NCBI RefSeq assembly: GCF_963921235.1
Contig: NC_086097.1
Span: 92,754,001-92,818,000, forward strand
Direction of reading: 5' to 3'
DNA: 64,000 bases
DNA from: Mobula hypostoma
Taxonomy: Eukaryota
Translations under genes and position numbers: made by a program
In this document: positions 8,478 through 57,589 of the stretch, in pieces
How positions within the stretch are numbered: the stretch's first letter is position 1
Layout: the number at the start of each line of letters is the position of its first letter
The notes under the pieces: generated by a model
The model's database searches: none
What the model was told of the DNA's origin: nothing
What the model saw: only the letters and a program-made list of their open reading frames with translations

Positions 8478-8790
8478 TCCTGGAACCCATCAATGACCAT
8501 GAGCATCACAAAATTTAATATAAGCTTCAGGGAAAACTATGGGTGCATTTTAATTTTTTACTGGATTAGTTTGTAAATATACCTTTGAGATATTCAAACA
8601 AATATCTAATGATTTGACAATTAATTCCAAGATATCTAAAGTTCTTCTTGGAACAGTACTGACGCTGAGAGCCCTGTTGGCAGCCGATGGAGTAGCATCG
8701 TTTTAGATTGCTCCTACCCTGTTTACTTATTTGTCTCCTACCAGTCTTTTTTTTTGAAACCCTATTATAATACTTTAATACTGTTTTACT

Positions 8791-9633
8791 ATGGCTGGGA
8801 AAAGAACCAAAGCGTCTGCAAAAGAAAAAGGAACAGAAGATGAATCCCCAGTCACTTTGGATTCAATCAGTGACTTCCTTAAACGGCAAAAATCGGAATT
8901 TTCTGAGGAGTTTCAACGACTTAACGGCAAATTGGATACAATTCAACAAACTTTATCTGAGCATGAGAACCGAATTCAGGAAAATACTGCGAAGCTGATG
9001 ACACTTGAAGAGGACATTGATGATACAATTAAACTCTGCAAAGAGTTATCTTTATCCAATGATAAAATGCTGAAAAGGATCATCAGTCTTGAAAATAGAA
9101 ACAGGAGAAATAACTTGCAAATTCTGGGTCTTGAAGAATCAATTGAAGGCACTGACCCTACGAAGTTTTTTGCAAACTTTCTGAAACAGCTTTTCCCTGC
9201 TTTATTCACTTCCGAGCCGAAGCTCGATCGAGCATATCACTCTTCAACTTCGAAGCCATTGTCGGCGGTGGTGAAACCCAGGTCGGTCATACTAAGCTTT
9301 CATAAATTTCATATTAAGGACCTTTTAATTCACTATACCCGTCGACAAGGAATGATCGATTTCCAAAATTACAAGGTTAAATTTGTGGAAGACTATTCAA
9401 CTGAAGTTATGGCTGATCGCAGGAAGTATAAAGAAGTTATGTCGGAATTTTACAATAAAGGATATAAACCATCCCTTTGGTTCCCTGCCCGTCTGAGTAT
9501 TGTTTTGAACGGATTGCAAAAAGGAATAAAGTCGGTTGAAGAAGCAAAAGAGTTTCTGAAGGATGAAGTCTCAATACCGTTATATTTCTTATTTGATCAA
9601 GCTTTTTCTTCTGTTAATATGAATTTGAAATAA
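8791..9633 (+). CDS. L1 ORF1 protein (coiled coil + RRM + CTD), 280 aa
   Basis: Heptad-rich N-terminus, then LENRNRRNNLQILGLEE, LDRAYH, KPRSVILSF, FVEDYS and LWFPARL, all L1 ORF1p hallmarks. Confidence 0.85.
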   Translation: MAGKRTKASAKEKGTEDESPVTLDSISDFLKRQKSEFSEEFQRLNGKLDTIQQTLSEHENRIQENTAKLMTLEEDIDDTIKLCKELSLSNDKMLKRIISLENRNRRNNLQILGLEESIEGTDPTKFFANFLKQLFPALFTSEPKLDRAYHSSTSKPLSAVVKPRSVILSFHKFHIKDLLIHYTRRQGMIDFQNYKVKFVEDYSTEVMADRRKYKEVMSEFYNKGYKPSLWFPARLSIVLNGLQKGIKSVEEAKEFLKDEVSIPLYFLFDQAFSSVNMNLK

Positions 9634-10080
9634 GGTTTCATTAAGTTTATGTTTTGGCTGTTCATATATTGTCTTTTGTTATTTTTTTTTGGTATCTCTT
9701 TTTTTTAATCCCTTTTTGAGGCGTTATTTTAATACAGCTTTCTCTGAATTTGTTTAAACTGATCCTTTCATATTTTCGAATACCGGGTTATTTTTCTTTT
9801 TATGTTGTGTCTTGGTAGGGACATAATGACCTTGTAGGATCGGAGTTTTTTTCTGTCAACAGGATTTTTATGGGGGGGGAGCTTAGTTCTTAGCTCGCTG
9901 ACTGTCTACTGGTCAGCTTTCTCGCTCTGGGTGGGGGAGGGGGTAGGGCCTATTTTTCTCTGGGAGCTGTGCTGGGTTGAATATATGTTTGTTTGTTTGA
10001 ATACCTTACCTTACGGTTTGCTTCCTAGTTTTAGTAACTTATGGCCAGATCTTCTAATTACACGTTGTTTGGTATTAAAA

Positions 10081-13000
10081 ATGGTTCGAAATGTTAACTT
10101 ATTTAGTTTGGATGTGAAAGGGCTGAATCACCCCATCAAAAAGAACAAAGTGTTTGCTTATATTAAAAAATTAAAAGCACCCATTATTTTCTTACAAGAA
10201 ACGCTTATACGCAGCTGTGATAGCTTAGGTTTTTTTTTACTCAGAGGAAGGGTATGCAGTTCCATTCTTCGTTTAATGCAAAATCATGTGGAGTTTCGAT
10301 TTTTGTAGATAATACAATTTCCTTTGTTCAGCATAAAGTTGTTTCAGACCCTAATGGTCGATTTGTTATTGTATCAGGGAGTTTAGACAGTAAACTGATT
10401 GTTTTTGCTAATGTATATGCCCCCCAATGTAGATGATCCAGGATTTTTTGAACGGCTATTTTCATTTTTGCCAGATTTGTGCACTTACTCCCTTATGATG
10501 GGAGGAGATTTTAACTGCTGGTTAGATCCAGTATTAGATCGCTCATCTATTAAACCAGCCACACTTAATAAATCAGCTTTGCTTATCCAATCTTTTCTAA
10601 CTAAATGTGGTATAGTTGATACTTGGCGTTTTCTCTATCTAACGGACAGGGAGTATTCTTTTTTCTCTCATGTTCATTGTTTTTACACCAGGATTGACTT
10701 TTTTTTAAATTAATAGTCAAATGATTCTATTAGTTCGATTGATTGAATATAAAGAGATTGCTATTTCTGACCACTTTCCTGTACTTTTATCTTTAAATCT
10801 TCCTGGTCCTATCCCCATGAGTAGATTTTGGCGATTTAATTTAACTTTGTTATCTGATGAGGACTTTTAAAAATTTATGGAGAATCAAATTACTCTTTTT
10901 TTTTGAAGAAAATACGTTGCAAGAGACGTCGAGTCTTATTATATGGGATACTTTTACAGCATATATCCGGGTCAAGTTATTTCTTATACTGCAAACATCA
11001 TTAAAAAAGCTAACAAAAAGAGAAATGAACTAGCCAATCAGTTAAAACAGCTGAACCATAAATATGCTTCAGTACCTGATCCTGAAACATATAAGAGACG
11101 TATTGAAACTAAAACTAAATATGATCTTCTTTTAACGTATCCAATTGAAAGCCAACTTTTCAAAGATAGAAGTCAATTTTATATTCATGGAAATAAAACT
11201 GGTAAGCTACTGACTAATCAATTGAAGCCATTTACAGCCGAGCGGCTAATTAAAGAAATACGTAAAATTAATGGGGACATGAAAACTGACCGCCTTAAAA
11301 TTAATGACACTTTTAGGGAATTTTATTCTAAATTGTATAGTTCTGACTCTGTTAATGATACTATTACAATGATTTTTTTAGATCGATTAAATATTCCTAA
11401 TCTTCTGTTAGATGATTGTAGGCAATTGGATCAACCCATTTCCCAGGAGGAAATTGCTCAGGCTATTCGAGAATTGCATTCTGGGAAATCCCCAGGACCT
11501 GATGGATTCTCTGGAGAGTTTTATAAGGCTTTTTCCTCCTTGCTTATACCACACTTATGTTCTACCCTTACAGATTCTTTTAAGGTAGGAAGATCACCGC
11601 AGTCTTTTTACGAAGCCTCCATTTCGCTCATTCTCAAAAAGAATAAGAATCTTACTGAATGTTTTTTGTATAGATCCATCTCTGTACTCAATTTTGATAC
11701 TAAAATTTTATCTGAAGTGTTGGCTCACAGACTTGAAAATATTATATCTTCTATAGTTTCAGATGATCAGACAGGATTCATTAAAAATCAATATTTCCAT
11801 TTTAATATACGGCGTTCGTTAAATGTTATGTACTCTCCATCTAAGGAAATATCGGAATGTATGATATCTTTGGATGCGGAGAAGGCTTTTGACAGAGTTG
11901 AATGGAACTTTCTCTTTACATGCTCAGAAAAATTTAATTTTGGACCTAATTTTATTTATTGGATTAAATTACTTTATTTATCTCCCTCCACTCAGGTTCT
12001 TACTAATTTTCAGAATTCTAGACCCTTTAAACTCCAATGTGGAACTAGACAAGGTTGCCCTTTGAGCCCTCTGCTTTTTATTTGGTATTAGTATTTAATT
12101 GGTATTAATTTTGTATTTAATTGGTCACCTCTCTCTTTATCACAGATTGGCCGAATCAATTCTAATAAAATGAATATCTTACCTAAATTTATATACTTTT
12201 TTCAAGCTGTGCCTGTTTTTATTCCTAAATCTTTTTTTGACTCTTTGGATTCAATTCTTTCTTCCTATATATGGAAGAATAAAAAACCTCATATAAATAA
12301 AGCTCACCTTCAAAAAACCAAACAAAATGGAGGATTTGTCTTACCCAATTTTAGGTTATATTATTGGGCAATTAATATACGTAATATTACATTCTGGATC
12401 TATTACATTAACCGTGAGAATTGCCCTACATGGGTTTCTCTGGAAGTCAACTCTGTTATAAAATTTTCCATTATTTCTTTACTTGGATCTTCGCTTCCTT
12501 TATCTTTAAATAAACTAATTGACAATGTGGTGGTTAAACATACATTGAGGATTTGGTTATAGTTTAGAAAACATTTCAGTTTATTGAGATTCTCCCTCTC
12601 AAGTCCCATCTTTTCTAATTGTTTTTTTTAAACCATTTTTAATTGACTTATCTTTTAAAGAATGGGATAGATTGGGTATTAAACAGTTTCAGGATTTGTT
12701 TGATGGAGGGAATCTCTCTTCTTTTGTGCAACTTTCAACGAAATTTAACCTTTCCAACACTCACTTTTTTCGACACTTACTGATTAGAGATTTTTTAAGA
12801 TCTCAATTACTTACATTTCCTACAAGACCAGATAAGAATACAATAGATACAATTTTTAATCTGAAACCCTTTGATAACAGTTCAATATCTTACATTTAGG
12901 GTCTACTGTTGGGACTGAAAAAGGACTCTTTAGATAAAATTAAAGGAGATTGGGAGAAGGATTTGCAGATTTTCATATCTGATGAGAGCTGGAAGATTAT

Positions 13001-13449
13001 TTTAAAATTGATTAATTCTTCATCATTATGTGCTCATCATTCTTTATTACAATTCAAAGTGGTACATAGAGTTCAGATGTCTAAAGACAAGCTTTCCCAT
13101 TTCAAAACAGATATTTCCCCTTACTGTGATAGATGTACTAATGGAGTGGCCACATCTAACTCATATGTTTTGGATATGTCCGAGCCTTGAAAAATTCTGG
13201 AAAGATGTATTTCAAACTTTTTCTGCACTTTTCAATGTCAGCTTTAAGCCCAATCCTTTGACTGCCTTGTTTGGTATTGTTGAGGATAGTGCTATAAAAT
13301 TGAAGCCATCTAATTTGCGGGTATTGGCCTTTATGTCTCTTATGGCCAGGAGGGCGATTTTGCTCAAGTGGAAGGAGGCTGCCCCGCCCACGCATGTTCA
13401 ATGGCTATCTGACGTTATGTTGTGCCTTGAGCTAGGGAAGATTCATTGT
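10081..13449 (+). pseudogene. L1 ORF2 (EN-RT), frameshifted and internally deleted
   Basis: Broken into ORFs 9931..10308, 10254..10436, 10399..10713, 10943..12091, 12170..12562 and others; the YADD region is missing. Confidence 0.85.
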
Positions 13450-16025
13450 ACGGACTGCAGAGCCTGCCGGCCTCGACGCTAGCAGGCATGAACTTTCGGT
13501 TGCGGCCCCTGCCGTTGGTCTCGGCGGCTCCAACACCTCAGGACATATTCAAAACCCGGACTCCAGCAACGACCATGGAGACATTCAAAGCGATCGCGCA
13601 ACCACCAACTGCGACTCCAGCCTTGAACTCCAGGCCGGGTCTTTATGTGCTGCTGTTGTGACTCCCGTCTCCCCTTCCCCCACCACCACTCCGCAGCCCC
13701 GTCTTCCTCAGATCCCACCGTCAACTCCTGGGCCCTCAGAGGCTCCATCTTCCTCTCACCCCAACCCTCCCCTCTCCATTGACACCCCCAGCCTCCCCCC
13801 TCCCCCCTCTGATCCCAGCTCTCATCCGTGCCGGGTCTTTACCATCCCCTCCGACCTTCAACTGTCGGAGGCAGAACACTCTGTTCTCAGTAAGGGCCTC
13901 ACGTTTGTCCCCCTTCGCCCACACCTCAGCGAGTTCCGTGTTCGCCATGATGCGGAACTTTTCTTCCGCCGTCTCCGTCTCCGAGCCTACTTCTTCGGCA
14001 AGGACTCTTCCACCCCCACCGATGACCCCTTCTCCCGTCTTCATCCCTCCTCTTCTTCATGGACACCCCGCTCTGGTCTTCTGCCTGCTCTGGATCTCTT
14101 TTATTGCCAACTGCCGACGGGACATCAACCGTCTCGACTTCACCGCACCTTGTCCCCATTCCAACCTCACTCCTTCGGAACGCTCTGCTCTCCACTCCCT
14201 CCGCACTAATCCTAACATTATTATTAAACCCGCTGATAAGGGGGGTGCTGTTGTAGTCTGGCGTACTGACCTCTACCTTGCCGAGGCACAGCGACAACTC
14301 GCGGATACCTCCTCTTATTTACCCCTCGATCGTGACCCCACTAAGGAGCACCAGGCCATTGTCTCCCACACTATCAACGACTTTATCCGCTCAGGGGATC
14401 TCCCATCCACTGCTACCAACCTTATAGTTCCCACACCCCGCACTTCCCGTTTCTACCTCCTACCCAAGATCCACAAACCTGCCTGTCCTGGCCGACCTAT
14501 TGTCTCAGCTTGCTCCTGCCCCACCGAACTCGTTTCTGCATACCTCGACACTGTTTTATCACCCCTTGTTCAATCCCTTCCGACCTATGTTCGTGACACT
14601 TCTCACGCTCTTAAACTTTTCGATGATTTTAAGTTCCCTGGCCCCCACCGCTTTATTTTCACCTTGGATGTCCAGTCCCTATATACTTCCATCCCCCATC
14701 AGGAAGGTCTCAAAGCTCTACGCTTCTTTTTGGATTCCAGACCTAATCAGTTCCCCTCTACCACCACTCTGCTCCGTCTAGCAGAATTAGTCCTTACTCT
14801 TAATAATTTCTCCTTTTGCTCCTCCCATTTCCTCCAAACTAAAGGTGTAGCTATGGGCACCCGTATGGGTCCTAGCTATGCCTGCCTTTTTGTTGGGTTT
14901 GTGGAACAATCTATGTTCCGTGCCTATTCTGGTATCTGTCCCCCACTTTTCCTTCGCTACATCGACGACTGCATTGGCGCTGCTTCCTGCACGCATGCAG
15001 AACTCGTTGACTTTATTAACTTTGCCTCCAACTTTCACCCTGCCCTCAAGTTTACCTGGTCCATTTCTGACACCTCCCTCCCCTTTCTAGATCTTTCTGT
15101 CTCTGTCTCTGGAGACAGCTTATCCACTGGTGTCTACTATAAGCCTACTGACTCTCACAACTATCTGGACTATTCCTCTTCTCACCCTGTCTCTTGCAAA
15201 AACGCCATCCCCTTCTCGCAATTCCTCCGTCTCCGCCGCATCTGCTCTCAGGATGAGGCTTTTCATTCTAGGACGAGGGAGATGTCTTCATTTTTTAAAG
15301 AAAGGGGCTTCCCTTCCTCCACTATCAACTCTGCTCTTAAACGCATCTCCCCCATTTCACGTACATCTGCTCTCACTCCATCCTCCCACCACCCCACTAG
15401 GAATAGGGTTCCCCTGGTCCTCACCTACCACCCCACCAGCCTCCGGGTCCAACATATTATTCTCCGTAACTTCCGCCACCTCCAACGGGATCCCACCACT
15501 AAGCATATCTTTCCCTCCCCGCCTCTCTCTGCATTCCGCAGGGATCGCTCCCTACACAACTCCCTTGTCCATTCGTCCCCCCCATCCCTCCCCACTGATC
15601 TCCCTCCTGGCACTTATCCGTGTAAGCGGAACAAGTGCTACACATGCCCTTACACTTCCTCCCTTACCACCATTCAGGGCCCCAAACAGTCCTTCCAGGT
15701 GAGGCATCACTTCACCTGTGAGTCGACTGGGGTGATATACTGCGTCCGGTGCTCCCGATGTGGCCTTTTATATATTGGTGAGACCCGACGCAGACTGGGA
15801 GACCGCTTTGCTGAACATCTACGCTCTGTCCGCCAGAGAAAGCAGGATCTCCCAGTGGCCACACATTTTAATTCCACATCCCATTCCCATTCTGACATGT
15901 CTATCCACGGCCTCCTCTACTGTAAAGATGAAGCCACACTCAGGTTGGAGGAACAACACCTTATATTCCGTCTGGGTAGCCTCCAACCTGATGGCATGAA
16001 CATTGACTTCTCTAACTTCCGCTAG
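13450..16025 (+). pseudogene. PLE polyprotein: RT (FYLLPKIHK, PGRPIVS, DVQSLYTSIP, GVAMGTRMGPSYA, RYIDD) + Cys linker (CKRNKCYTC) + GIY-YIG (VIYCVRC..YIGET)
   Basis: The frame of ORF 13658..14209 is open from the 13450 junction to LPALDLF. One extra T in the run at 14099-14102 shifts it into ORF 13779..16025. No ATG at the truncated 5' end. Confidence 0.9.
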
Positions 16026-16314
16026 GCCCCACCTCCCCCTCGTACCCCATCTGTTACTCTTTTTAATGCACACATTCTTTCTCTCACTCTCCTTTTTCTC
16101 CCTCTGTCCCTCTGAATATACCTCTTGCCCATCCTCTGGGTCACCCCCCCCCCCGTCTTTCTTCCCGGACCTCCTGTCCCATGATCCTCTCGTATCCCCT
16201 TCTGCCTATCACCTGTCCAGCTCTCGGCTCCATCCCTCCCCCTCCTGTCTTCTCCTATCATTTTGCATCTCCCCCTCCCCCTCCAGCTTTCAAATCCCTT
16301 ACTCACTCTTCCTT

Positions 16315-16356
16315 CAGTTAGTCCTGACGAAGGGTCTCGGCCTGAAACGTCGACTG
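16315..16356 (+). ncRNA. Minimal type-I hammerhead ribozyme (dimer-type), intact core
   Basis: Helix I uaguc/gacug, CUGACGA at 16324-16330, short helix II, GAAACGUC at 16344-16351 with a loop-less palindromic helix III (ACGU). Predicted cleavage after C16351. Confidence 0.85.
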
Positions 16357-16599
16357 CGCCTCTTCCTATAGATGCTGCTTGGCCTGCTGCGTTCACCAGC
16401 AACTTTGATGTATGTTGCTTGAATTTCCAGCATCTGCAGAATTCCTGTTGTTTATCTTGTTGTAATCTCATTACTGTCTCTGGAACCTTACTGTATGCAG
16501 ATAAACTGCTGTGCTTCCTGAATTTAAAACAGTGATTGCAGTGCTACAACATTTGAATTACTGGACCAGAAATCCAGAGATATGGATGAGCAGTCTAAA

Positions 16600-17791: not shown

Positions 17792-19337
17792 CAGCTCTGT
17801 GCAAAAGTGTTAGACACCCTTGATTTTTTTTATATGATGTCAGAAGGTATGGCCTGATCTCAACAGCACCAAGGCTGCCTGGGATTACCTGGAGAGACAG
17901 AAGCAAGCCTGACAGCTGAAGTCTGCAGAAGAAGGTTAGTTAGGACGGTTCAATCGTTAGGTATTAATATCGAAGTAGTGAAATGAATTCAGCTGGCTGG
18001 CTGGGAGACACCAGAGAGTAGTGGTGGATAACTGTGTGTCAGATTGGAGGGTGGTGTCTAGTGGTGTGCCTCAGGGATCTGTACTGGGTCCAATGTTGTT
18101 TGTCATATATATTAATGATCTGGATGATGGGGTGGTAAACTGGATTAGTAAGTATGCAGATGATACTAAGATAGGTGGAGTTGTGGATAATGAAGTAGGT
18201 TTTCAAAGCTTGCAGAGAGATTTAGGCCAGTTAGAAGAATGGGCTGAAAGATGGCAGATGGAGTTTAATGCTGATAAATGTGAGGTGCTACATTTTGGTA
18301 GGGCTAATCAAAATAGGACATACATGGTAAATGGTAGGGCATTGAAGAATGCAGTAGAACAGAGGGATCTAGGAATAATGGTGCATAGTTCTCTGAAGGT
18401 GGAATCTCATGTGGATAGTGTGGTGAAGAAAGCTTTTGGTATGCTGGCCTTTATAAATCAGAGCATTGAGTATAGGAGTTGGGATGTAATGTTGAAAATT
18501 GTACAATGCATTGGTAAGGCCAAATTTGGAGTATTGTGTACAGTTCTGGTCACCGAATTATAGGAAAGATGTCAACAAAATTGAGAGAGTACAGAGAAGA
18601 TTTACTAGAATGTTACCTGGGTTTCATCTCCTAAGTTACAGAGAAAGGTTGAACAAGTTGGGTCTTTATTCTTTGGAGCGTAGAAGGCTGAGGGGGGACT
18701 TGATAGAGGTATTTAAAATTATGAGGGGGATAGATAGAGTTGACGTGGATAGGCTTTTTCCATTAAGAGTGGGGGAGATTCAAACAACAGAACATGAGTT
18801 GAGAGTTAAAGGGCAAAAGTTTAGGGGTAACATGAGGGGGAACTTCTTTACTCAGAGAGTGGTAGCTGTGTGGAACGAGCTTCCAGCAGAATTGGTTGAG
18901 GCAGGTTCAATGTTGTAATTTAAAGTTAAATTGGATAGATATATGGACAGGAAAGGAATGGAGGGTTATGGGCTGAGTGCAGGTCGGTGGGACTAGGTGA
19001 GAGTAAGAGTTCGGCACGGACTAGAAGGACTGAGATGGCCCGTTTCTGTGCTGTAATTGGTATATGGTTATATGGTATAAGAACTGTGGCAAGATGCTGG
19101 GAACAACCTACCCACTGATTTTTTTATAAAACTGCACAAAAGTGTACCTAAGAGAATTAATGCAGTTTTAAATGCAAAGAGTGGTCACACCAAATGTTGA
19201 TTTGATTTCGTTTTTTTGACTGTTAACTGCTCTTTATAGTAATTTTTTGATATTTAGAAACTTGTCATTTCATTATTTTTAGTAGCTTCGCTTCACAGAA
19301 TTTTTTTTTACATGCGCCTGACTTTTGCACAGCACTG
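17792..19337 (+). mobile_element. Tc1-like non-autonomous DNA transposon (interrupted by CR1)
   Basis: TA-flanked TIRs cagctctgtgcaaaagt / acttttgcacagcactg. Remnant Tc1 C-terminus (PDLN..WDYLE..; VPKRINAVLNAKSGHTK) lies on both sides of the CR1. Confidence 0.8.
17933..19078 (+). mobile_element. CR1/HER1-type LINE, 5'-truncated
   Basis: SGVPQGSVLGP, YADDTK, RPNLEYCVQFWSP and LERRRLRGDLIE motifs; (tatatgg)n tail. Confidence 0.92.
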
Positions 19338-24658: not shown

Positions 24659-27466
24659 CAAGTGTCCCTCGCTTTTCAAACGTTCGCTTTACAAAACCTC
24701 ACTGTTACGAAAGACCTACATTTGTACCCTGTTTTCGCTTTCAGAAGGTGGTTTTACTGTTACGAAGAAAGGCAGCGCGCGATAAAAAATCAGCGCACAT
24801 CCCAAGCAGCCGCTCTCCCCGGATTCGGAACGGCATTTTACTTTAACACGTGCCTGTGAGCAGCCGTTTGCAAGATGAGTTCTGAGGTATTGGAAAACAC
24901 TAAAAGAGCTCGTAAGGGTGTTAAACTTAGCGTAAAACTAGACATAATTAAGCGTTTCGATCATGGTGAACGAAGCAAGGACAAAGTGAGTTTGGCTTGT
25001 GGAAGTTGACAAAGATGATGTTGAAGAGGTTTTGGCATCCCATGACCAAGAACTGATAGATGAAGAGCTGATGCAATTGGAAGAGGAAAGGATAACAATC
25101 GAAACCGAATGCAGTATCGAACTGAATGTGAAGCAACTGCGTGAGATTTTCGCTGCAATGATAAAGCACGACTTTAATTTTGAAAGGGTACGTAGGTTTA
25201 GGGGATATTCGCAGGATAGTTTGAGTCCTTACAAACAATTGTATGATAGAAAAATGCGCGAGGCTCAGCAGTCAAGCAAGCCTTCCACATCAGCCACAGC
25301 AGACGATGAACCTCGACCTTCAACATCGAGGCAGGCAGTCATAGGAGAAGATGAGCTGCCTGCCCTGATCGATGATGAGATGACACCCCCGTGTCCCAGC
25401 ACCCCAACACCCAGGCCCTGGACAGATACTGTACTGATTTGCGGAGAATGCAGCAGTAGCCGGGAGGCACACAGCACATCTTTAAGAAAAAAGCCGAAAT
25501 AAACAAGCTAATTAATTAGGTGCCGCCGACACGTAATTGTCGGCCCAGATCAGTGCCGATTTCCGATTGCATCGCCTCAGATCTGAGCCAACAATTATGT
25601 GTCGGCGGCACCTAATTAATTAGCATGTTTATTTTGGCTTTTTTCTTAAAGATGTGCTGTGTGCCTCCCGGCTACTGCTGCATTCTTCGCAGCAATGTAT
25701 TGGGTCGGTGGCCCGGAGGGTGGGGGCCACTGCACCACCCAACCTGCGACAACTCAGCCTAACACACCATCATCAGTTTGCTCGGCAAGCTGTCTTCCCG
25801 ATTCCTGTAAGTGATACTACACTGTACATACATTATTTCTATTTTATATAGGCTGTGTATTTTTTTGTGTTATTTGGTAGATTTGGCAGCCTCATAGCTT
25901 AAAGGTTACTGGAGAGCGTGTTTATGCCAACAGCGCTTGCATTAGATTTTCTGCCAAGAGCACTTGCGTGAGATTTTCGCTACGGAGATCTGTCCAGGCA
26001 ATCGTTGTACAGAAGTATTTCTACTTTATATAGGCTGTGTATTTATCATATCATTCCTGCTTTTACTATACATGGGAGATCCAGTGGATGTGGTGTACCT
26101 TGACTTTCAGAAGGCATTTGATAAGGTACCACATAGGAGATTGGTGGGTAAAATCAGAGCTCATGGCATTGGGGGGAGGATATTGACATGGATAGAAAAC
26201 TGGTTGGCAGATAGAAAGCAAAGCGTAGCAGTGAATGGGTGTTTCTCGGAATGGCAGGTGGTGACTAGTGGGGTGCCACAGGGCTCGGTATTGGGACCAC
26301 AGCTGTTTATGATTTACTTCAATAATTTAGAGGAAGGCATTGTGAATAACATCAGCAAGTTTGCTGATGATACTAAGCTGGGTGGCAGTGTGACATGTGA
26401 TGAGGATGTTAGAATTCATGGTGACTTGGATAGGCTGGGTGAGTGGGCTGAAACTTGGCAGATGGCGTTTAATGTGAATAAGTGTGAGGTTATTCACTTT
26501 GGGAGCAAGAACAGGAAGGCAGATTATTATCTGAACAGTGTGGAGTTAGGTAAGGGAAAAATACGAAGAGATCTAGGAGTACTTGTTCATCAGTCTCTGA
26601 AGGTGAATGAGCAAGTGCAGCAGGCAGTGAAGAAGGCTAATGGAATGTTGGCCTTTATTACAAAGGGAATTGAGTACAAGAGCAAGGAAATCCTTTTGCA
26701 TTTGTACAGGGCCCTGGTGAGACCACAACTGGAGTATTGTGTGCAGTTTTGGTCTCCACGGTTAAGGAAGGACATCCTGGCTGTGGAGGAGGTGCAGCAT
26801 AGGTTCACTAGGTTAATTCCTGGGATGTCCGGACTGTCTTACGCAGAGAGGTTAGAGTGACTGGGCTTGTACACGCTGGAATTAAGGAGATTGAGGGGGG
26901 GATCTGATTGAGACATATAAGATTATTAAAGGATTGGACAAGATAGAGGCAGGAAATATGTTCCAGATGCTGGGAGAGTCCAGTACCAGAGGGCATGGTT
27001 TAAGAATAAGGGGTAGGTCATTTAGGACAGAGTTGAGGAGGAACTTCTTCTCCCAGAGAGTTGTGGAGGTGTGGAACGCGCTGCCTCAGAAGGCAGTGGA
27101 GGCCAATTCTCTGGATGCTTTCAAGGAGCTAGATAGGTATCTTATGGATAGGGGAATCAAGGGTTATGGGGACAAGGCAGGAACCAGGTATTGATAGTAG
27201 ATGATCAGCCATGATCTCAGAATGGCGGTGCAGGCTCGAAGGGCCGACTGGTCTACTTCTGCACCTATTGTCTATTGTCTATATGCTACTGTTACTTTAG
27301 GTTTTAGGTGTTATTTGTCATGATTTGGTAGGTTATTTTTGGGTCTGCAAACACTCACAAAATTTTCCCATATAAATAAATGGTAATTGCTTCTTCGCTT
27401 TACGACATTTCGCCTTACGAACCGTTTCATAGGAATGCTCTACCTTCGGACAGCGGGGGAAACCTG
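24659..27466 (+). mobile_element. Tigger/pogo internal-deletion derivative, copy 1 (contains a CR1)
   Basis: TA TSD and TIRs caagtgtccctcgc / gcgggggaaacctg. Retains the N-terminal HTH start (RKGVxLSVKLDIIKRFDHGE) and the acidic C-terminus (DVEEVLASHDQELIDEELMQLEEE); no DDD domain. Confidence 0.85.
26071..27278 (+). mobile_element. CR1/HER1-type LINE, 5'-truncated
   Basis: VDVVYLDFQKAFDKVPH, GVPQGSVLGP and FADDTK motifs; (tattgtc)n tail; ctata direct repeat at both ends. Confidence 0.92.
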
Positions 27467-29450: not shown

Positions 29451-29609
29451 ACATACTGATACATGATGAAATGGCAAAGCAAACTCGATGGCCTAATTCT
29501 GTTCCTATATCTTATGGTCTAAATGCTAATTTTTCCAACTAGAAATCTAAACATTTATAGTCTGCAAATTTAAGAACAAGGCAAAAAAACATTTTTTTTA
29601 AAAATCCAC

Positions 29610-32020
29610 GTCCTTTGAGCCCTCTACTTTTTGATTTGATATTAGAACCCTTAGCAATTGCTTTTCGAGAGTCTAAAGCGATTACTGGTATTTTAAGGAG
29701 AGGTACTATCCATAAAGTGTCGCTCTATGCTGATGACTTATTGATTTTTATATCTAATGTTACAATGTCTTTACCATTTGTGTTCCGTTTACTGACTAAT
29801 TTTAGTCAGTTCTCAAGATATAAATTAAATTTACATAAGAGTGAACTGTTTCCTTTAAACAATTTAATACCAACTGATATTAACCTTCCTTTTAAAATTT
29901 TAAGAAAACAATTTATGTATTTAGGAGTAACAATTACTAAGAATTATAAAGATTTATTTATGGAAAATTTTTTAACTTTAATGAATTATGTTAAAAAAAA
30001 CTTTCTAAATGGTCACCTCTCTCTTTATCACTGATTGGCCAAATTAATTCTAGTAAAATGAATATCTTACCTAAATTTATATACCTTTTTCAAGCTGTGC
30101 CTGTTTTTATTCCTAAATTTCTTTTTAACTCTTTGGATTCAATTCTTTCTCCCTATATATGGAATAAAAAACCTCGTATAAATAAAGCTCACCTTCAAAA
30201 TACCATACAAAATGGAGTCTTTGCCTTACCCAATTTTAGGTTATATTATTGGGCAGTTAATATACAAAATATTACGTTCTGGATATATTATATTAACCAT
30301 GAGAATTGCCCTATACGGGTTTCTTTGGAAATTTTATGAAATGTCCATTATTTCTTTACTTGGATCCTCGCTTCCTTTATCTTTAAATAAACTAACTGAC
30401 AATGTGGTGGTCAAACATACTTTGAGGATTTGTTTACAGTTTAGAAAACATTTTGGTTTATTGAGATTCTCCCTCTCAAGTCCCATCTTTTCTAATTGTT
30501 TTTTAAACCATCTTTAATTGATTTATCTTTTAAAGAATGGGATAGATTAGGTATTAAACAATTTCAGGATTTGGTTGATGGAGGGAATCTCTCTTCTTTT
30601 GCGCAACTTTCAATGAAATTTAACCTTCCAATACTCACTTTTTTCGACACTTATAGATTAGAGATTTTTTAAGATCTCAATTACATACATTTCCTACAAG
30701 TCCAGGTAAGAATATAATAGACAATTTTTAATCTGAAACCCTTTGATAACGGTTCAATATCTTACATTTACGGTCAGCTGTTGGGACTGAAAAAGGACTC
30801 TTTAGATAAAATTAAAGGAGATTGGGAAAAAGATTTACAGATTTTCATATCTGAAGAGAGCTGGAAGATTATTTTAAAATTGATCAATTCTTCATCATTA
30901 TGTGGGTGTATTTAAGGCAGAGATTGATAGGTATCTGAGTAGCCAGGGCATCAAAGGTTATGGTGAGAAGGCAGGGGAGTGGGACTAAATAGGAGAAAAT
31001 GGATCAGCTCATGATAAAATGGCGGAGCAGACTCGATGGGCCGAATGGCCTACTTCTGCTCCTTTGTCTTATGGTCTTATGTGCTCGTCAGTCTTTAATA
31101 CAATTCAAAGAGGTAAATAGAGTTCATATGTCTAAAGACAAGCTCTCTCATTTCTACGCAGATATTTTCCCTTACCATGATAGACGTACTAATTCATATG
31201 TTTTGGACATGTATGAGCCTTGAAAAATTTTGGAAAGATGTATTTCAAACTTTTTCTGCACTTTTCAATGTTAGTTTTAAGACCAATCCTTTGACTGCCT
31301 TGTTTGGTATTGTTGAGGATAGTGCTACAAAATTGAAGCCATCTAATTTGCGGGTATTGGCCTTTATGTCTCTAATGGTCAGGAGGGCGATTTTGCTCAA
31401 GTGGAAGGAGGCCGCCCCGCCCACTCATGTTCAATGGCTATCTGACGTTATAGAAACATAGAAAATAGGTGCAGGAGTAGGCCATTCGGCCCTTCGAGCC
31501 TGCACCGCCATTTATTATGATCATGGCTGATCATCCAACTCAGAACCCCGCCCCAGCCTTCCCTCCATACCCCCTGACCCCTGTACCCCTGACCTATGTT
31601 GTGCCTTGATCTAGAGAAGATTCATTGTTCGATTTCTGATTCTAAACATGATTTTCTAATGTTATGGGGACCCTTTCTGAGTTATTTTCATAATCTTTGA
31701 ACTGTTATTAAAGTATGGATCTGAGCCATTATTATTATAATATTATATGGTAAGGTATTTCTTTTTTTCTTCTCTTTTAACCAACCGGCCCATTTTGGTA
31801 GTGGGGTAGTTTTATTTTAATAAAATACAATTATTTTAATTTATTTCATTTCATAATTCAATCTTTTTTTTCCTACATGATTGATTTGGAATATGAGATA
31901 ATGTGATCATATTACTGTGATTTAAATGTAATGTAATTCATATTACTTACTTGTATCCTTATGAATTTTGTATTTGCATTTATGCAATTTTTATAATATT
32001 AATAAAAATATTGAGAGAAA
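29610..32020 (+). mobile_element. L1-clade LINE family A, 5'-truncated copy with two CR1-tail inserts (about 30904-31076 + and about 31450-31594 -)
   Basis: High identity to 12060-13449; SLYADD and MNILPK motifs; 3' end ttaataaaaatattg. Confidence 0.88.
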
Positions 32021-34863: not shown

Positions 34864-34970
34864 CCTTCAGTTAGTCCTGACGAAGGGTCTCGGCCTGAAA
34901 TGTCGACTGCGCCTCTTCCTATAGATGCTGCTTGGCCTGCTGCGTTCACCAGCAACTTTGATGTGTGTTG
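34864..34970 (+). mobile_element. 107-bp mini-Penelope insertion (hammerhead + hairpin only)
   Basis: Near-identical to 16311-16417, flanked by a perfect 14-bp TSD caggaaagtaaatt (34850-34863, 34971-34984) inside L1 ORF1. Confidence 0.9.
34868..34909 (+). ncRNA. Minimal hammerhead ribozyme copy (helix III variant GAAAUGUC)
   Basis: CUGACGA core at 34877-34883; a CpG-type C>T change in helix III. Confidence 0.75.
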
Positions 34971-35852: not shown

Positions 35853-36737
35853 GTCTCCCCACTGATCTCCCTCCTGGCACTTATCATTGTAAGCGGAACA
35901 AGTGCTACACATGCCCTTACACTTCCTCCCTCACCACCATTCAGGGCCCCAGACAGTCCTTCCAGGTGAGGCGACACTTCACCTGTGAGTCGGCTGGGGT
36001 GATATACTGCATCCGGTGCTCCCGATGTGGCCTTCTATATATTGGCGAGACCCGACGCAGACTGGGAGATCGTTTTGCTAAACACCTACGCTCTGTCCGC
36101 CAGAGAAAGCAGGATCTCCCAGTGGCCACACATTTTAATTCCAATGGGCCATTCCCATTCTGACATGTCTCACCACAGCCTCCTCTACTGTAAAGATGAA
36201 GCCACACTCAGGTTGGAGGAACAACACCTTGTATTCTGTCTGGGTAGCGTAGCCTCCAACCTGATGGCATGAACATTGACTTCTCAAACTTCCGCTAATG
36301 CCCCACCTCCCCCTCGTACCCCATCCATTATTTATTTATATGCACACATTCTTTTTCTCTCTCTCTCTCCTTTTTCTCCCTCTGTCCCTCTGACTATACC
36401 CCTTGCCCATCCTCTGGCCTTTTCTCCCCCCCTCCCCCTTTTCTTTCTCCATAGGCCTCCTGTCCAATGATCCTCTCATATCCTTTTTGCCAATCAACTG
36501 TCCAGCTCTTGGCTCCATCCCTCCCCCTCCTGTCTTCTCCTATCATTTCGGATCTCCCCCTCCCCCTCCCACTTTCAAATCTCTTACTAGCTCTTCTTTC
36601 AGTTAGTCCTGACGAAGGATCTCGGCCCGAAACATCGACTGTACCCCTTCCTAGAGATGCTGCCTGTCCTGCTGCGTTCACCAGCAACTTTTATGTGTGT
36701 TGCTTGAAATTCCAGCATCTGCAGATTTCCTCGTGTT
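35853..36737 (+). mobile_element. Penelope-like element 3' fragment (GIY-YIG + 3'UTR + hammerhead at 36600-36641, variant GAAACAUC)
   Basis: Near-identical to 15590-16450; sits in the L1-B inter-ORF spacer. Confidence 0.9.
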
Positions 36738-39445
36738 ATAGATTTTTTTACTTACTTTTATAGGTACTGCAGCGGGGGCCCTCAACTCACAGGTAGGAGG
36801 GGCTATCCCCCACGGCTAGACATTTCCTCTAGCTCAACCCAGGGTCATCAACAGACCCCAGCCTTGGAATCACACCTTCGTTACCTTTTTTTTTATTATT
36901 CGTGTTTCTTGGCTCTTACTTGTTCAGGGCGTAGATCGATTAAGTTATATTCTGCAAATTTCAATGGCATACTAACAGATAAATACACATGGCTAAGGAC
37001 AAAGTAAAATTCATTTCTTTTAATGTCAATGGGCTGTTAAATCCAATCAAACAAAGTTAAATTCTATCAAAAATGAAAAAAGAACAAACCCATGTAGTAT
37101 ATTCACAGGAAACTCACTTCAGTGATAATGAGCATGGAAAATTAAAGAGAATGGGTTTCACTAATTTGTTTTTCTCCTCATATAAATCAGGACATAGAAG
37201 AGGAGTTGCTATTTTCATCTCAAGCAAGCCAAATTTTGAAAAAGTATTCGAAATGGGAGATAAGGAGGGCAGATATGTTCTGGTAAGGGGGAATATAGAC
37301 GGAAATCCAGTTACTTTATTGAATATATACGCACCCCCAGGAAGAGATATTAGTTTCTTCCAGAAAATTACTAATATTATGGTAACGGAAACAGAAGGTC
37401 TCTTGATATGTGGGGGAGATTTAAATTTACAATTACAACTAAAGTTAGACTCTTCCAATAGAAAAACTTATGAAACAAAGTCCTTACATAAGAAAGTTAA
37501 CACTCTTTTTGAGGATGTTGGTCTAATTGATATATGGAGGGATCTTTTTCCCCAAACGAAGGGATTACACTCATTATTCTGCCCCCCCCCCCATTCCGTA
37601 TATACAAGAATAGACTATTTCATAACATTTGGAAAAGATAAAGACAAAATAAACACCTGTGGAATTGGGACAATAGATGTAAGTGACCATGCACCTATAT
37701 ATTTATCTGTTGATTTTGACCTACAACCATAGAATACTATCTGGAAACTAAATTCAAGTCTACTCAATGATTCCTATTTTAAAGAACAAATTAAAAAAGA
37801 AATTGGTCTTTACTTAGAATTCAATGATAATGGGAGAGGTTTCACCTCCCATTCTATGGGATACTCTGAAGACCGTCTTAAGAGGGAAAATTATAGCGAT
37901 ATCTTCATATAAGAAAAAAAATAAGGGATAAAACATTAGAGGAATTACAAAATAAGCTGAAGGAACTAGAAAAAAAACACAAATTGAGTTTGGCACAGGA
38001 TACACTAGAGGAAATTTTAAAAATTAGGAATAAAATTAATAGTTTGGCTACACAAGAAATTAGAAAAAATTTAATGTTTCTGAAACAGAGACACTATGAA
38101 AGTGGATCTAAATCTATGAAAATACTGGCGTGGAAACTGAAAAAAAGATAGCAGAAAATACAATTCATAGTATTAGGGATCCAAGAACAAAAGTGATTAA
38201 AAAATAAGGTAAGTGAAATTCAAGAAGCTTTTGAAATGTTTTACAAAACTCTATATTCCAAAAGTTCCAGGGGAAAGCATAACTGAAATTGACACCTTCC
38301 TGAATTCTTTAGAGTTACCCACTTTAAGTAAAGAACAAAATAGAACGATGACTGCTGACATAACTGAAGCTGAACCAAAAACTGCAATTAGTGTGCTTAA
38401 ATTAAGCAAGTCACCAGGATCAGATGGATATACCGCAGAGTGGTATAAGGAATTTAGAAATGAGTTAATTCCTGTTTTGCTCCCCACACTGAACTGGACC
38501 CTAAGAAAGGAACAAATGCCACCTAGCTGGAAGGAGGTGATAATCTCAGCTATACCGAAAGAAGGCAAGGATAACATGGAATGTGAGTCCTTTAGACCAA
38601 TAACTGTTCTTAATGTGGATTATAGAATATTTACCTCCATCATGGCCAAAGGATTAGAAGAGTTTCTACCCACACTGATACATAATGATCAGCCAGGTTT
38701 TATACAACAACGCCAAACACAGGACAATATACGAAGGACACTTCACATTATGGATCATATAAAAAAATGAAATTGAAGCAATAGTGATAAGTGTGGTCGC
38801 TGAAAAGGCATTTGATTCGGTTAATTGGAATTTTCTTTACAGAGTTTTACATAGATTCGGTCTACATGACACAATTATTAAAACTATACAGGCACTATAT
38901 GACAATCCTACTGTTAGGATTAAAATCAATGGATATTTATCTAATAGTTTTACCCTAGAAAGGGGCACGAGACAGGGTTGTGCATGGTCACCGCTACTCT
39001 TTGCATTATATCTGGAACCATTAGCTCAATACATCAGACAAAATGAAGATATCAGGGGAATTGCTATTAAAGGGACAGAACATAAATTGGCCTATTACGC
39101 GGATGGCATTTTGATCTATCTAGGGCAACCAACATACTCTTTATCTAAATTGATGCAATCCTTTGAACAATATGGCCAATTATCAGGATACAAGATCAAC
39201 ATAGATAAAACCCAACTACTTTCATATAACTATAGCCCACCAAGAGAAATGGAAAGTAGATATCCCTGGGCATGGCAAACAGAGTCTGTCAAATATTTGG
39301 GCATCATTATGCCAAAAGATTTGACAAAATTATCAGAATGCAATTATCAGCCTATATATAAAAAAAATTAAGGAAGATATAACAAGATGGAACCTAATTC
39401 CTTTTCTTGGTCTGAGTTCAAGGATTGAATCTATTAAAATGAATA

Positions 39446-44447: not shown

Positions 44448-44607
44448 ACATACATAAAAGTTGCTGGTGAATGCAGCTGGCCAGGCAGCATCTCTAAGAA
44501 GAGGTACAGTCGACGTTTCGGGCCGAGACCCTTCGTCAGGACTAACTGAAAGAAGAGCTAGTAAGAGATTTGAAACCAGCATCTGCAGATTTCCTCATGT
44601 TTGCATT
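44448..44607 (-). mobile_element. 160-bp mini-Penelope insertion with inverted 3' tip
   Basis: Minus-strand hammerhead segment (44448-about 44574) followed by a plus-strand ccagcatctgcagatttcctcatgtttgc tip. 15-bp TSD tttaa(a/t)atacagtta at 44433-44447 and 44608-44622. Confidence 0.85.
44507..44548 (-). ncRNA. Minimal hammerhead ribozyme, consensus-perfect copy
   Basis: Minus strand reads cagttagtc CTGACGA a gggt ctcg gccc GAAACGTC gactg. Confidence 0.85.
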
Positions 44608-45183
44608 TTTAATATACAGTTAGTGCTTAATGGGAAGCAAAAGTAGATCAGAAAGATCAAAAGATAGGTGAGTGGTGCAGGTTCATTCTTGGGCAGCAAA
44701 GTGTAGGATAACCTCAAGTTTATGACGATAACGTTGAGGAAAACAGGGCTGGAATGCACTGGAATAATCAAAACTAAGCTAACAAAATGACAAAAGATTT
44801 TCAGCAGCCAGAACGATACAAGGATAGAGTTAAGCAGTTAGAGACGTGGAAATAAGTAAACAAGAGATTCTGCAGATACTGGAAATCCAAAACAACACAC
44901 ACAAAATGCTACATGAATTCAGCAGATCAGGCAGCATCTATGAAAATGAATAAACAGTTAAGATTTCAGGCTGAGATCCTTCAGCAGGACCAGAAAGGAA
45001 GGGGAAAGATACCAGAATTAAAAGGTGGGGGGAGGGGAAGGAGGGCAAGCTAGAAGGTGATAGGTGAAGCCAGGTGAGCAAAAAAGGACCAAGCATTTTA
45101 ATTCCTATCCCCATTCCCGGTCCAACATTGAATATTTACTCTTTTCCATCTAGATATTGCCTGATCTGCTGAGTTCATCCAGC

Positions 45184-47442: not shown

Positions 47443-49467
47443 ACGCAGCAGGCCAGGCAGCATCTCTAGGAAGAGGTACAGTCAACGTTTCGGGCCGAGA
47501 CCCTTCCTCAGGACTAACTGAAGGAAGAGCTAGTAAGAGATTTAAGAGGGGGAGGGGGAGATCCAAAATGATAGGAGAAGACAGGAGGGGGAGGGATGGA
47601 GCCAAGAGCTGGACAGGTGATTGGCAAAAGGGATATGAGAGGATCATGGGACAGGAGGCCTAGGGAGAAAGAAAAGGGGGAAGGGGGAAAAACCCAGAGG
47701 ATGGGCAAGGGGTATAGTCTGAGAGAGAAAAAGGAGAGAGTGAGAAAGAATGAATGTGTGTATATACATGAATAACAGATGAGTTATGAGGGGGAGGAGG
47801 GGCATTAGCGGAAGTTAGAGAAGTCAATGTCCATGCCATCAGGTTGGAGGCTACCCAGACGGAATATAAGGTGTTGCTCCTGCAACCTGAGTGTGGCTTC
47901 ATCTTTACAGTAGAGGAGGCCGTGGATAGACGTGTCAGATTGGGAATGGGATGTGGAATTAAAATGTGTGGCCACTGGGAGATCCTGCTTTCTCTGGCGG
48001 ACAGAGCGTAGGTGTTCAGCAAAACGATCTCCCAGTCTGCGTCGGGTCTCGCCAATATATAAAAGGCCACATCGGGAGCACCGGACGCAGTATATCACCC
48101 CAGCCGACTCACAGGTGAAGTGTCCCCTCACCTGAAAGGACTGTATGGGGCCCTGAATGGTGGTAAGGGAGGAAGTGTAAGGGCATGTGTAGCACTTGTT
48201 CCGCTTACAAGGATAAGTGCCAGGAGGGAGATCAGTGGGGAGGGATGGGAGGGACGAATGGACAAGGGAGTCGCGTAGGGAGCGATCCCTGCGGAATGCC
48301 GAGAGAGGGGGGGAGGGAAAGATGTGCTTACTGGTGGGATCCCGTTGGAGGTGGCAGAAGTTACGGAGAATAATATGTTGGACCCGGAGACTGGTGGGGT
48401 GGTAGGTGAGGACCAGGGGAACCCTATTCCTAGTGGGGCGGTGGGAGGATGGAGTGAGAGCAGATGTGCGTGAAATGGGGGAGATGCGTTTGAGAGCAGA
48501 GTTGATGATGCAGGAAGGGAAGCCCCTTTCTTTAAAAAAGGAGGACATCTCCCTCGTCCTGGAATGAAAAGCCTCATCCTGAGAGCAGATGTGGCGGAGA
48601 CAGAGGAATTGCGAGAAGGGGATGGCATTTTTGGAAGAGACAGGGTGGGAAGAGGAATAGTCCAGATAGCTGTGAGAGTCAGTAGGCTTATAGTAGACAT
48701 CAGTAGATAAGCTGTCTCCACAGATAAACAGAAAGATCTAGAAAGGGGAGGGAGGTGTTGGAAATGGACCAGGTTGACTTCGTTAACTTTGTCCTGTACG
48801 CATGCTGAGCTCGTTGACTTCATTAACTTTGAGTCCACCAGAGAAAGCAGGATCTCCTAGTGGCCACATATTTTAATTCCACATCCCATTCCCATTCTGA
48901 TATGTCTATCCACGGCCTCCTCTACTGTAAAGATGAAGCCACACTCAGGTTGGAGGAACCACACCTTATATTCCGTCTGGGTAGCCTCCAACCTGATGGC
49001 ATGAACATCGACTTCTCTAACTTCCACTAATGCCCCACCTCACCCTCTTAACCCATCTGTTATTTATGTATATACACACATTCTTTCTCTCTCTCTCCTT
49101 TTTCTCCCTCTGTCCCTCTGACTATACCCCTTGCCCATCCTCTGGGTTTTCCCCCCCTCCCCCTTTTCCATCTCCCTGGGCCTCCAGTCCCATGATCCTC
49201 TCATATCCCTTTTGCCAATCACCTGTCCAGCTCTTGGCTCCATCCCTCCCCTTCCTGTTTTCTCCTATCATTTTGGATCTCTCCCTCCCCCTCCCACTTT
49301 CAAATCTCTTACTAGCTCTTCCTTCAGTTAGTCCTGACGAAGGGTCTCGGCCTGAAACGTCGACTGGACCTCTTCCTAGAGATGCTGCCTGGCCTGCTGC
49401 GTTCACTAGCAACTTTGATGTGTGTTGCTTGAATTTCCAGCATCTGCAGAATTCCTTGTGTTTGCGT
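47443..49467. mobile_element. Inverted-repeat Penelope insertion: minus copy 47443-48775 and plus copy 48838-49467
   Basis: ORF 47805..48548(-) is the PLE thumb/GIY-YIG region. Both arms end in a hammerhead (47479-47520 -, CUGAGGA/GAAACGUU; 49325-49366 +, intact). Confidence 0.9.
49325..49366 (+). ncRNA. Minimal hammerhead ribozyme, intact copy
   Basis: Identical core to 16315-16356. Confidence 0.85.
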
Positions 49468-50159: not shown

Positions 50160-50932
50160 GTAATGTGCTGGAGGAACTCAGCAGGCCGGGCAGCATCTAG
50201 AAAAAGATCACAGTGGACGTTTCGGGCCGAAGCCCTCTCGCAGGACTGGGGAAAAACGCTGAGGAGTAGATTTGCAAGGTGGGGAGAGGGGAGAGAGAAA
50301 CGCCAGGTGATGGGTGAAACCTGGAGGGGGAGGAATGAAGTAAAGAGCTGGGAAGTTGATTGGTGAAAGAGACAGAAGGCCATGGAAGAAAGAAAAGGGG
50401 GAGGAGCACCAGAGGGAGGCGATGGGCAGGCAAGGAGATAAGGTGAGAGAGGGAAAAGGGGAAGGGGAATGGTGAAGGGTGGGGGGGTCATAACCAAAGT
50501 TTGAGAAATCAATGTTCAAGCTATCAGGTTGAAAGCTACCCAGGTGGAACATAAGGTGTTGTTCCTCCAACCTAAGTGTGGCCTCATCATGATGGTGAAG
50601 GAGGCCATGGATGGATATATAGGAATGGGAAGTGGAATTAAAATGCGCAGTCACTGGGAGATCCTGCTTATTCTGGCAGACAGAGCGTAGATGCTCGGCG
50701 AAGTGGTCTCTCAACCTATGTCGGGTCTCACCGACATACAGGAGGCAACACCAGGAGCACCGAACACAGTAAATGACCCCAACAGACTCACAGGTGAAAT
50801 GTCCTGCCAAAGGGTTTTGGCTCATAACATTGACTGTGCTTTTTCCATAGATGCTGCCTGGCCTGCTGAGTTCCTCCAGCATTTTGTGTGTGTTACTCGG
50901 ATTTCCAGCATCTGCAGATTTTCTCTTGCTGG
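50160..50932. mobile_element. Older Penelope subfamily, inverted arrangement (minus 50160-50800, plus tail 50800-50932)
   Basis: GIY-YIG remnant HFTCESVGVIYCVRC..YVGET in ORF 50208..50882(-); degenerate hammerheads at both ends. Confidence 0.85.
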
Positions 50933-52702: not shown

Positions 52703-52900
52703 CAATACACACACAAAATGCTGGAGGAACTCAGCAGGTCAGGCAGCATCTGTGGAAAAGAGTAAATAGTCGACATTTCGGGCCGAAACTCTTCTTCAGG
52801 ACTGAGAAGGAAGGGGGAGGATGCCAGACTGAAAAGGTGTTGGGTCGGGAAAGAGGCTAGCTGGAAGGTGGTAGGTGAAGCCAGCTGGGAGGGAGAAGTC
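52703..52900 (-). mobile_element. PLE-tail short repeat with hammerhead variant (CUGAAGA...GAAAUGUC, about 52768-52805)
   Basis: Same tail family as above; similar degenerate copies at about 19410, 20280, 20725, 21430, 23000, 32860, 43320, 44860, 45120 and 47255. Confidence 0.75.
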
Positions 52901-57400: not shown

Positions 57401-57589
57401 CGTTTCTGCTCCACGACGCGTTGGAATTTTACCCAAGATTGCGCTGGCTGCATTGGGTTTTATGATGCCGTGAACCCTACCATTGTTTTCCTATACGTAC
57501 CTAGAATTGTATTAACGCACTGGAATGTTTGCCTGCAACTCTGATGGCCCTTCACACCTTTGATCTCTTACCCGGTTTGTACATATTCC

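Follow-up and report, generated by a model that had tools for sequence, protein, structure and literature searches.

A minimal hammerhead motif in a young and abundant Penelope-like element of Mobula hypostoma, and the 5' ends of its genomic copies

The element and its hammerhead motif

The window analysed here (the whole stretch of 64,000 nucleotides from Mobula hypostoma) carries a 5'-truncated Penelope-like element (PLE), whose features are collected in Table 1. In this copy the start codon is missing, as are the initial ~600 nt of the 3.5-kb unit, and the first ~150 aa of its open frame are not in the element's frame. We found a single ORF carrying RT and, at its C terminus, a GIY-YIG endonuclease (EN), the feature of EN+ PLEs, with both Pfam matches under the curated cut-offs (E of 3e-5 and 1e-3, respectively). 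The element protein has 549 relatives; the closest named one comes from Chiloscyllium punctatum (71% identity), and the other named ones from marine invertebrates. Counted from its first Met, the ORF of a full-length copy (L038:3349-6393) is 1,015 aa long, and its ~300 N-terminal residues, which include a Pro/Ser-rich stretch, have no Pfam match.

The copies of this family display the hallmarks of PLEs: partial tandems, inverted 5' copies, a 30-40 bp tail at one end and target duplications. There is one hammerhead per 3.5-kb unit, and the start codon lies ~140 nt after the upstream one. Among 20 long copies, which are loci picked for their long open frames, 12 carry a hammerhead at both ends, ~3,513 nt apart and with seamless read-through, and the upstream partial units exceed 1.3 kb at most extended. 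The window element has only the 3' hammerhead, which begins 293 nt downstream of the ORF, and no second one in cis. Moreover, two classes of 3' end were observed in 98 young copies, at ~+67 (58/98) and at ~+102 (40/98); the ~35-nt difference is the known PLE tail. Positions here and below are counted from the predicted scissile bond (C17 = -1; G1.1, at 16352, = +1).

The first-pass annotation had placed the hammerhead at 16315; the motif is real, but it starts at 16319, four upstream bases having been included. Its reading as a PLE minimal type I hammerhead whose helix III is open in a single copy has held. The core positions C3 U4 G5 A6 N7 G8 A9, G12 A13 A14 A15.1, U16.1 and H17 are all present, helices I and II form (G.U pairs included), and both the extra nucleotide between 9 and 10.1 and the palindromic 15.2-16.2 without loop 3 are found. 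Note that the 10.1-11.1 pair at this locus is G.U, not G10.1-C11.1, and that U11.1 permits an alternative register with an A.U first pair and no extra base. Judged by its letters, the motif has every sequence feature of the published consensus (CUGANGAH-G..C-GAAAN-palindrome-NUH; Cervera & De la Pena 2014, PMC4209133, in the part available to us) except the strict G10.1-C11.1.

Table 1. Coordinates, strands and basis of the features in the 64-kb window
Feature	Position	Strand	Basis or remark
5'-truncated Penelope-like element	13449..16453	+	99% identical to full-length copy L038
Open frame with RT at aa 278-440 and, at the C terminus, a GIY-YIG endonuclease at aa 690-764	13662..16025	+	
RT-EN linker C-x4-C-x2-C, of Neptune/Nematis type	15621..15647	+	sequence
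Alternative hairpin, upstream CCUUCAG with catalytic core strand	16311..16333	+	predicted minimum-energy fold, young subfamily
Zone -37..-28, homologous to the pile-up of insertion 5' ends	16315..16324	+	end maps
Minimal type I hammerhead motif	16319..16356	+	sequence, structural descriptor, published consensus
Helix I, UAGUC/GACUG	16319-16323 with 16352-16356	+	5 bp
Catalytic core CUGACGA	16324-16330	+	
Extra A after core	16331	+	
Stem-loop II, GGGU(CUCG)GCCU	16332-16343	+	4 bp
GAAA + ACGU palindrome	16344-16350	+	followed by C17 = 16351
Predicted scissile bond C17/G1.1	16351..16352	+	hammerhead numbering applied to sequence
Linker and conserved 3' segment, to short 3' end (~+67)	16357..16418	+	
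Optional ~35-nt tail, to long 3' end (~+102)	16419..16453	+	present on the window copy
Short solo copy, insert -43..+67	34872..34909	+	transition in ACGU palindrome
Hammerhead copy within 3' fragment 35855-36731	36604..36641	+	transition in ACGU palindrome
Intact hammerhead copy with G10.1-C11.1	44507..44544	-	
Head-to-head pair of 3' fragments	47443..49465		47443-48774 minus, 48833-49465 plus
Hammerheads of that pair	47479-47516; 49329-49366	-; +	
Head-to-head pair of the older A6C subfamily	50211..50836		50211-50248 minus, 50799-50836 plus
A6C-subfamily copies in the window (other examples: loci L281-L310)	50211-50248; 50799-50836; 44955-44992	-; +; -	
Decayed copy of an older subfamily	52767..52804	-	7 mismatches

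Closure of helix III within a single copy is sterically impossible. With nearest-neighbour energies, a crude model for a ribozyme, an active two-strand dimer fold can be drawn at -11.5 kcal/mol, but the same energies favour other folds (another dimer at -30.3 and an inactive monomer at -11.0 kcal/mol each). In the young subfamily the predicted CCUUCAG hairpin would block the ribozyme fold. None of the predicted folds is more stable than those of shuffled sequences (z from -1.3 to +0.4; ~0 for the alternative hairpin), and these energies are at most weak evidence, which would agree with the published low activity and need for a helper.

No hammerhead family of Rfam matched the window at E<=10, which probably reflects the missing helix III. 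The core pattern occurs 6 times in the 64-kb window versus 1.02 expected, and a structural descriptor gave 29 matches in 864 kb, all from this family, and none in any of 5 Markov controls. A second hammerhead family was not found among these 29 matches, and a core match at 24577 on the minus strand, which failed the descriptor, was taken as chance.

All seven copies listed by the first-pass annotation exist, though they differ in state. Core, helices and palindrome are intact in three of them (16319+, 44507- and 49329+), and the copy at 47479- is compatible with a hammerhead (N7 = G, H17 = U). Decayed copies absent from that list were found at 50211-, 50799+ and 44955-, together with a pair at 22995-/23036+.

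Other repeats surround these copies. Two copies of one repeat (24838-25691 and 39652-40455) contain an internal inverted repeat of 110-120 bp that is nearly perfect; by their look we take them to be derivatives of a Tigger/pogo-type DNA transposon, and two frames in them gave no Pfam match. A 36-bp minisatellite of ~49 copies occupies 57589-59360. LINE-type RT fragments (Pfam RVT_1) lie at 8779-13482, 17982-18563, 25946-26860, 29561-31451, 38213-39371 and 53508-54242, and the Penelope copy sits directly 3' of the 3' part of such a fragment, a part that recurs at 30006-31451.

Copy number, subfamilies and conservation

Across the 3.48-Gb genome, the 31-nt core pattern is matched exactly at 46,104 sites and a downstream 34-mer at 56,547. 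A sample of 800 kb, taken from 11 large contigs as eighty 10-kb stretches at regular intervals, contained 102 motif-spanning copies, or one per 7.8 kb, in line with the one per 9 kb noted earlier for the window. The total extrapolates to ~4.4e5 motif copies (+/- ~20%, from large contigs only), and the very large genomic population proposed at first is thus borne out. In the sample and the window together, 115 of 177 profile matches span the motif. Of 150 matches scored for a 157-aa piece of the protein, over 130 were 100% identical, and many lay within 1,043-aa frames. This PLE family is young and abundant in the Mobula hypostoma genome.

We compared the subfamilies by their commonest letter, column by column (young, n=20; A6C, n=30; other old, n=19). 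The young subfamily differs from the A6C subfamily at 5/38 motif columns and from the other old one at 4/38, mostly by CpG transitions or pair-keeping changes. The adjacent linker differs at 6/13 columns, and the +19..+66 segment at 8 and 9 of 48. The motif and this segment are thus conserved to a similar degree, and the conservation may reflect protein binding, not catalysis. Two-sided covariation was not seen: no compensatory helix change appeared across 115 copies of one family, a weak test given how close the lineages are. Pair changes in these 115 copies were one-sided (C-G/U.G at the helix I end, G-C/G.U at 10.1-11.1, and CpG decay), and 10.1-11.1 is G.U in 26/40 and G-C in 11/40 young copies. 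The CpGs of the core, the palindrome and the cut site are kept in 88-97% of young copies and in about half of the old ones, and this retention in young copies points to probable selection on the master lineage. Contigs from four other organisms carry the same motif, the listed differences being CpG transitions and 11.1 C/T; their loose ends begin at -32.

A core change, A6C, was present in 14/75 old copies. Genome-wide, the exact A6C pattern has 1,410 copies versus 264 for the controls (A6G plus A6U), and at 11/30 inspected A6C loci an endonuclease end lies ~250-300 nt upstream in the same orientation. The A6C subfamily is an older, autonomous lineage with the core CUGCYGA that still spread. 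Hammerheads with A6C are slow in Mg2+ and favour Mn2+, according to the available portions of two earlier studies (PMC7151607; PMC3088659). A strict catalytic constraint is disfavoured because the older subfamily has this change.

The 5' ends of the insertions

The 98 young copies, which were anchored downstream of the motif, show no enrichment of 5' ends at the predicted cut: 2/98 ended at +2..-2, versus 2.9 expected. In these copies the best 14-nt interval just upstream of the cut holds 24/98 ends (P = 0.0006 versus a fitted declining hazard). In 136 core-intact copies, a set not selected via the ORF and partly overlapping the 98, the zone -28..-37 holds 40 ends (2.9% per nt), the zone -38..-46 holds 16, and another 10 are spread over -47..-72 (0.5% per nt). 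The peak is a plateau of 10-19 nt, not a single base. A single-base stop at -31 was considered and rejected, as the normalised value of 13% is an overestimate (upstream purine bias) and a direct sample gave 7/191.

Genome-wide, junctions were defined by three non-matching upstream bases, and numbered 222 at +1, 88 at +8, 157 at -8 and 1,997 at -31; these counts are rough, the filters being unequal between positions. After a rough correction, +1 junctions are ~2.5-fold over the two control positions. Inverted joins make up 25/29 of those inspected, and most of these joins sit at short microhomologies, for instance between the two strands of helix I. The 30 inspected -31 junctions comprise 16 inverted ones, 6 with a target duplication and 8 unclassed. 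Among the pile-up ends that are not inverted, 9/13 show a target duplication of 8-14 bp, located at the junction or close to it (control 7/300). They are thus insertion ends, and a splice-junction origin of the pile-up is rejected for most simple inserts. Many -31 junctions (L341-L370) bear short additions that re-copy the 5' strand of stem II, AAGG-like, with an AGG or AAG start in ~60% of the first 100 listed. By their sequence, these additions suggest possible realignment of the cDNA at a block or at the template end.

The peak at -28..-37 is seen alike in tailed (15/82) and tail-less (29/104) copies, so the stop is positional, and a length-dependent stop is ruled out. It is, moreover, limited to the terminal hammerhead, the one closest to the 3' end of the element: ends at -28..-46 account for 60/186 at terminal hammerheads versus 0/24 at the upstream hammerhead of tandems (Fisher p = 2e-4), two ORF-containing copies that end at -27 lying outside the count. 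A separate, SINE-like lineage of short copies was not supported, since the haplotypes of short copies did not differ from those of long ones (p = 0.41).

Several sequence features lie near these ends. The pile-up zone contains a YYAGT, a putative initiator-like or splice-acceptor-like sequence. A pyrimidine tract ending in YAG (16357-16371, +6..+20) is kept across subfamilies; with it, the core CUGAC, which presumably resembles the branch-point consensus, may form a splice acceptor. In ORF-containing copies 5' ends are frequent at -430..-680 (L131-L160), and a donor-like CAG/GTGAGG occurs at -653 (window 15696-15704), together hinting at a transcript start or an intron boundary in the EN region. 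Among the 15 joints listed from assembled RNA contigs, which cannot reveal ends or strand, none joined the candidate donor at 15699 to helix I.

Head-to-head pairs were inspected at 47 loci. In 44/47 a tailed arm is joined to a tail-less one, and none has two short arms; three long-long pairs and one long-short pair have an arm that extends past the reference end into the ORF. Because a 10-18 bp duplication encloses the whole pair in 39/47, these pairs are single events. The arms duplicate the same segment, with both ends within -45..+20 in 21/47, and agree at 221/241 variant sites, versus 59% when shuffled. The one-ended tail and the inverted copies are already known; the pair counts are new.

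Possible roles of the hammerhead and comparison with known systems

The genomic record argues against cleaved linear RNA as the template, because ends are not enriched at the cut and 12/20 long copies have seamless double hammerheads. Note that religated circles would likewise leave no +1 ends, so that "uncut" and "cut and religated" look the same in this record. We consider it likely, taking both parts jointly, that the minimal hammerhead of this PLE is a weak self-cutter dependent on a dimer and probably on protein, and that the RNA copied into the genome is uncut. Self-cutting would need a second copy paired via ACGU and, probably, the element's own protein. Reverse transcription would start internally, as it does in an Anolis PLE, here at +67 or +102, and would cross a scissile bond that is intact (or religated); a stop at -28..-46 would follow in roughly a third to 40% of the copies with an intact core, giving solo hammerhead inserts of 95-150 bp. 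Cleavage would likely remove RNA from the template pool by splitting tandem or read-through transcripts, and would not make template ends. For this PLE, dimerisation, catalysis, internal initiation and the role of cutting are proposed by analogy with papers of 2014 and 2024. In the portions of these available to us, PLE minimal hammerheads have low activity even as dimers (PMC4209133), and the Anolis hammerhead cuts only with the ORF protein, its mutants still insert in vitro, and no RNA ends lie at the cut (PMC11167929). The processing of element RNA through paired copies, as first proposed, is thus partly contradicted by the lack of an end excess at the cut, the read-through in 12/20 long copies, the spread of A6C and the lack of two-sided covariation.

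Alternatively, paired hammerheads could excise the unit RNA, and the religated circle be copied for more than one round to yield partial tandems. This model, put forward in 2014 (PMC4209133, available part), would account for the seamless junctions and for upstream partial units longer than 1.3 kb, and a ligated junction leaves no +1 ends; but we judge it unlikely, as there is no sign of unligated +1 templates, the A6C subfamily spread, existing tandems give the same structures when read through, and Anolis hammerhead mutants insert normally in vitro (PMC11167929, available part). The pile-up by itself could have another origin, compatible with the uncut-template reading: transcription may, tentatively, start from the initiator-like YYAGT in the 5' strand of helix I, at about -36/-32. 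The short inserts would then possibly, though on balance not probably, be complete copies of RNA 5' ends, and cleavage would remove a ~32-nt capped leader. The sharp drop in ends upstream of -46 and the subfamily-shared sequence that begins at -33/-32 agree with such a start, the AAGG-like additions fit a hard template end, and the pseudo-LTR of the D. virilis Penelope contains a promoter (PMC2377424). It is opposed by the ORF-containing copies, in which no counted end falls in the zone so frequently used at terminal hammerheads, and by a peak that is a plateau.

The arrangement of the head-to-head pairs brings in a third role, which we regard as rather improbable: the hammerhead would mainly join two element RNAs within one protein dimer. 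With similarly low probability, each RNA would be copied from one cut DNA strand, copying tending to halt at the join. The tailed plus tail-less composition, the enclosing duplications, the shared segment with clustered ends and a positional stop at the first hammerhead only, in both 3' classes, all fit this account, as does the Anolis protein, a predicted dimer that cuts and extends both strands (PMC11167929, available part). However, the variants shared by the two arms fit equally well one RNA copied twice, no pair could be identified as mixed in subfamily, nearly half of the pile-up ends lack an inversion (13/29), and PLE clades without hammerheads have one-ended tails and inverted repeats as well (PMC8557442, available part). 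Carried further, and in our view quite doubtful, the PLE hammerhead would be a dimerisation and checkpoint device like the retroviral kissing loop. It is equally doubtful that copying of the paired RNAs onto the two cut DNA strands begins at +67 and +102 and halts at the joined hammerheads; if true, this would account for the tail and the head-to-head pairs, for the solo hammerhead inserts, and for the fact that A6C is tolerated. Finally, the motif might be kept as a passenger or relic for an overlapping signal (protein binding, promoter or splice acceptor), catalysis being dispensable. The A6C subfamily, the G.U at 10.1-11.1 in the youngest copies and the lack of covariation speak for this, and Naiad PLEs thrive without hammerheads (PMC8557442, available part). 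We nonetheless hold it to be very unlikely, because the other core bases, both helices and five CpGs are kept in the active lineage while about half are decayed in old copies, and the same architecture recurs with different helices across metazoans (PMC4209133, available part).

The role of the hammerhead for PLEs was described as still open in 2021 (PMC8557442, available part). The present genome, with its tens of thousands of young, nearly identical copies and its numerous intact ORFs, records the transposition reaction at base resolution. The lack of a cut-end excess, the stop past the first hammerhead and the successful lineage with a weakened core provide predictions for a reconstituted PLE reaction.

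The comparisons that follow concern the portions of the cited papers available to us. As occurs with the metazoan minimal hammerheads (PMC4209133), the motif is of type I, with an extra nucleotide between 9 and 10.1, a palindromic 15.2-16.2, no loop 3, a helix I of 4-5 bp and a pyrimidine-rich upstream flank; it also lies in pLTRs, and its copies are mostly solo and truncated. The extra nucleotide, the palindrome and the dimer architecture were already described there, and the same paper gives the GAAAC-GU-C form for fugu, lamprey, Xenopus, tick and sea urchin. Unlike those cases, the host here is a cartilaginous fish, stem II has 4 bp, the youngest copies have G.U at 10.1-11.1, and there is an A6C subfamily. 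The copies are ~50-100x those of coelacanth (~4,000) or Xenopus (~9,000), which were counted by another method (PMC4209133). Our literature search retrieved no paper on minimal hammerheads in cartilaginous fish, although Lunse et al. 2017, on dimer cleavage, or the tables of a 2026 preprint may include shark motifs.

As in Poseidon PAc of Anolis carolinensis (Frangieh et al. 2024, PMC11167929), there are two 3' ends ~35 nt apart and downstream of the hammerhead, partial tandems, and no enrichment of genomic ends at the cut. The PAc hammerhead overlaps the start codon, whereas ours lies ~140 nt upstream. A further difference is the Neptune/Nematis-type cysteine linker in the protein described here. 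With the Neptune and Nematis EN+ PLEs (Craig et al. 2021, PMC8557442) it shares the C-terminal GIY-YIG, a CX2-5CxxC linker, partial tandems, inverted 5' copies and a one-ended tail; the linker would fit Neptune and Nematis alike. Non-LTR retrozymes (bioRxiv 10.64898/2026.07.22.740005, a study that sampled one chondrichthyan genome) likewise have PLE-derived type I hammerheads, but they are non-coding tandem arrays, whereas here an autonomous element is accompanied by dispersed truncated copies, the short ones without separate haplotypes.

The CUGCYGA core of the older subfamily resembles the A6C variants known from a bacteriophage and from an engineered mutant (Perreault 2011, PMC3088659; Naghdi 2020, PMC7151607, available parts); here, to judge from the sequence, it occurs in the minimal, dimer-type motif of a vertebrate retroelement. 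Among Penelope-like elements a motif of this sort is nothing unusual; the interest lies in the end map and the A6C lineage.
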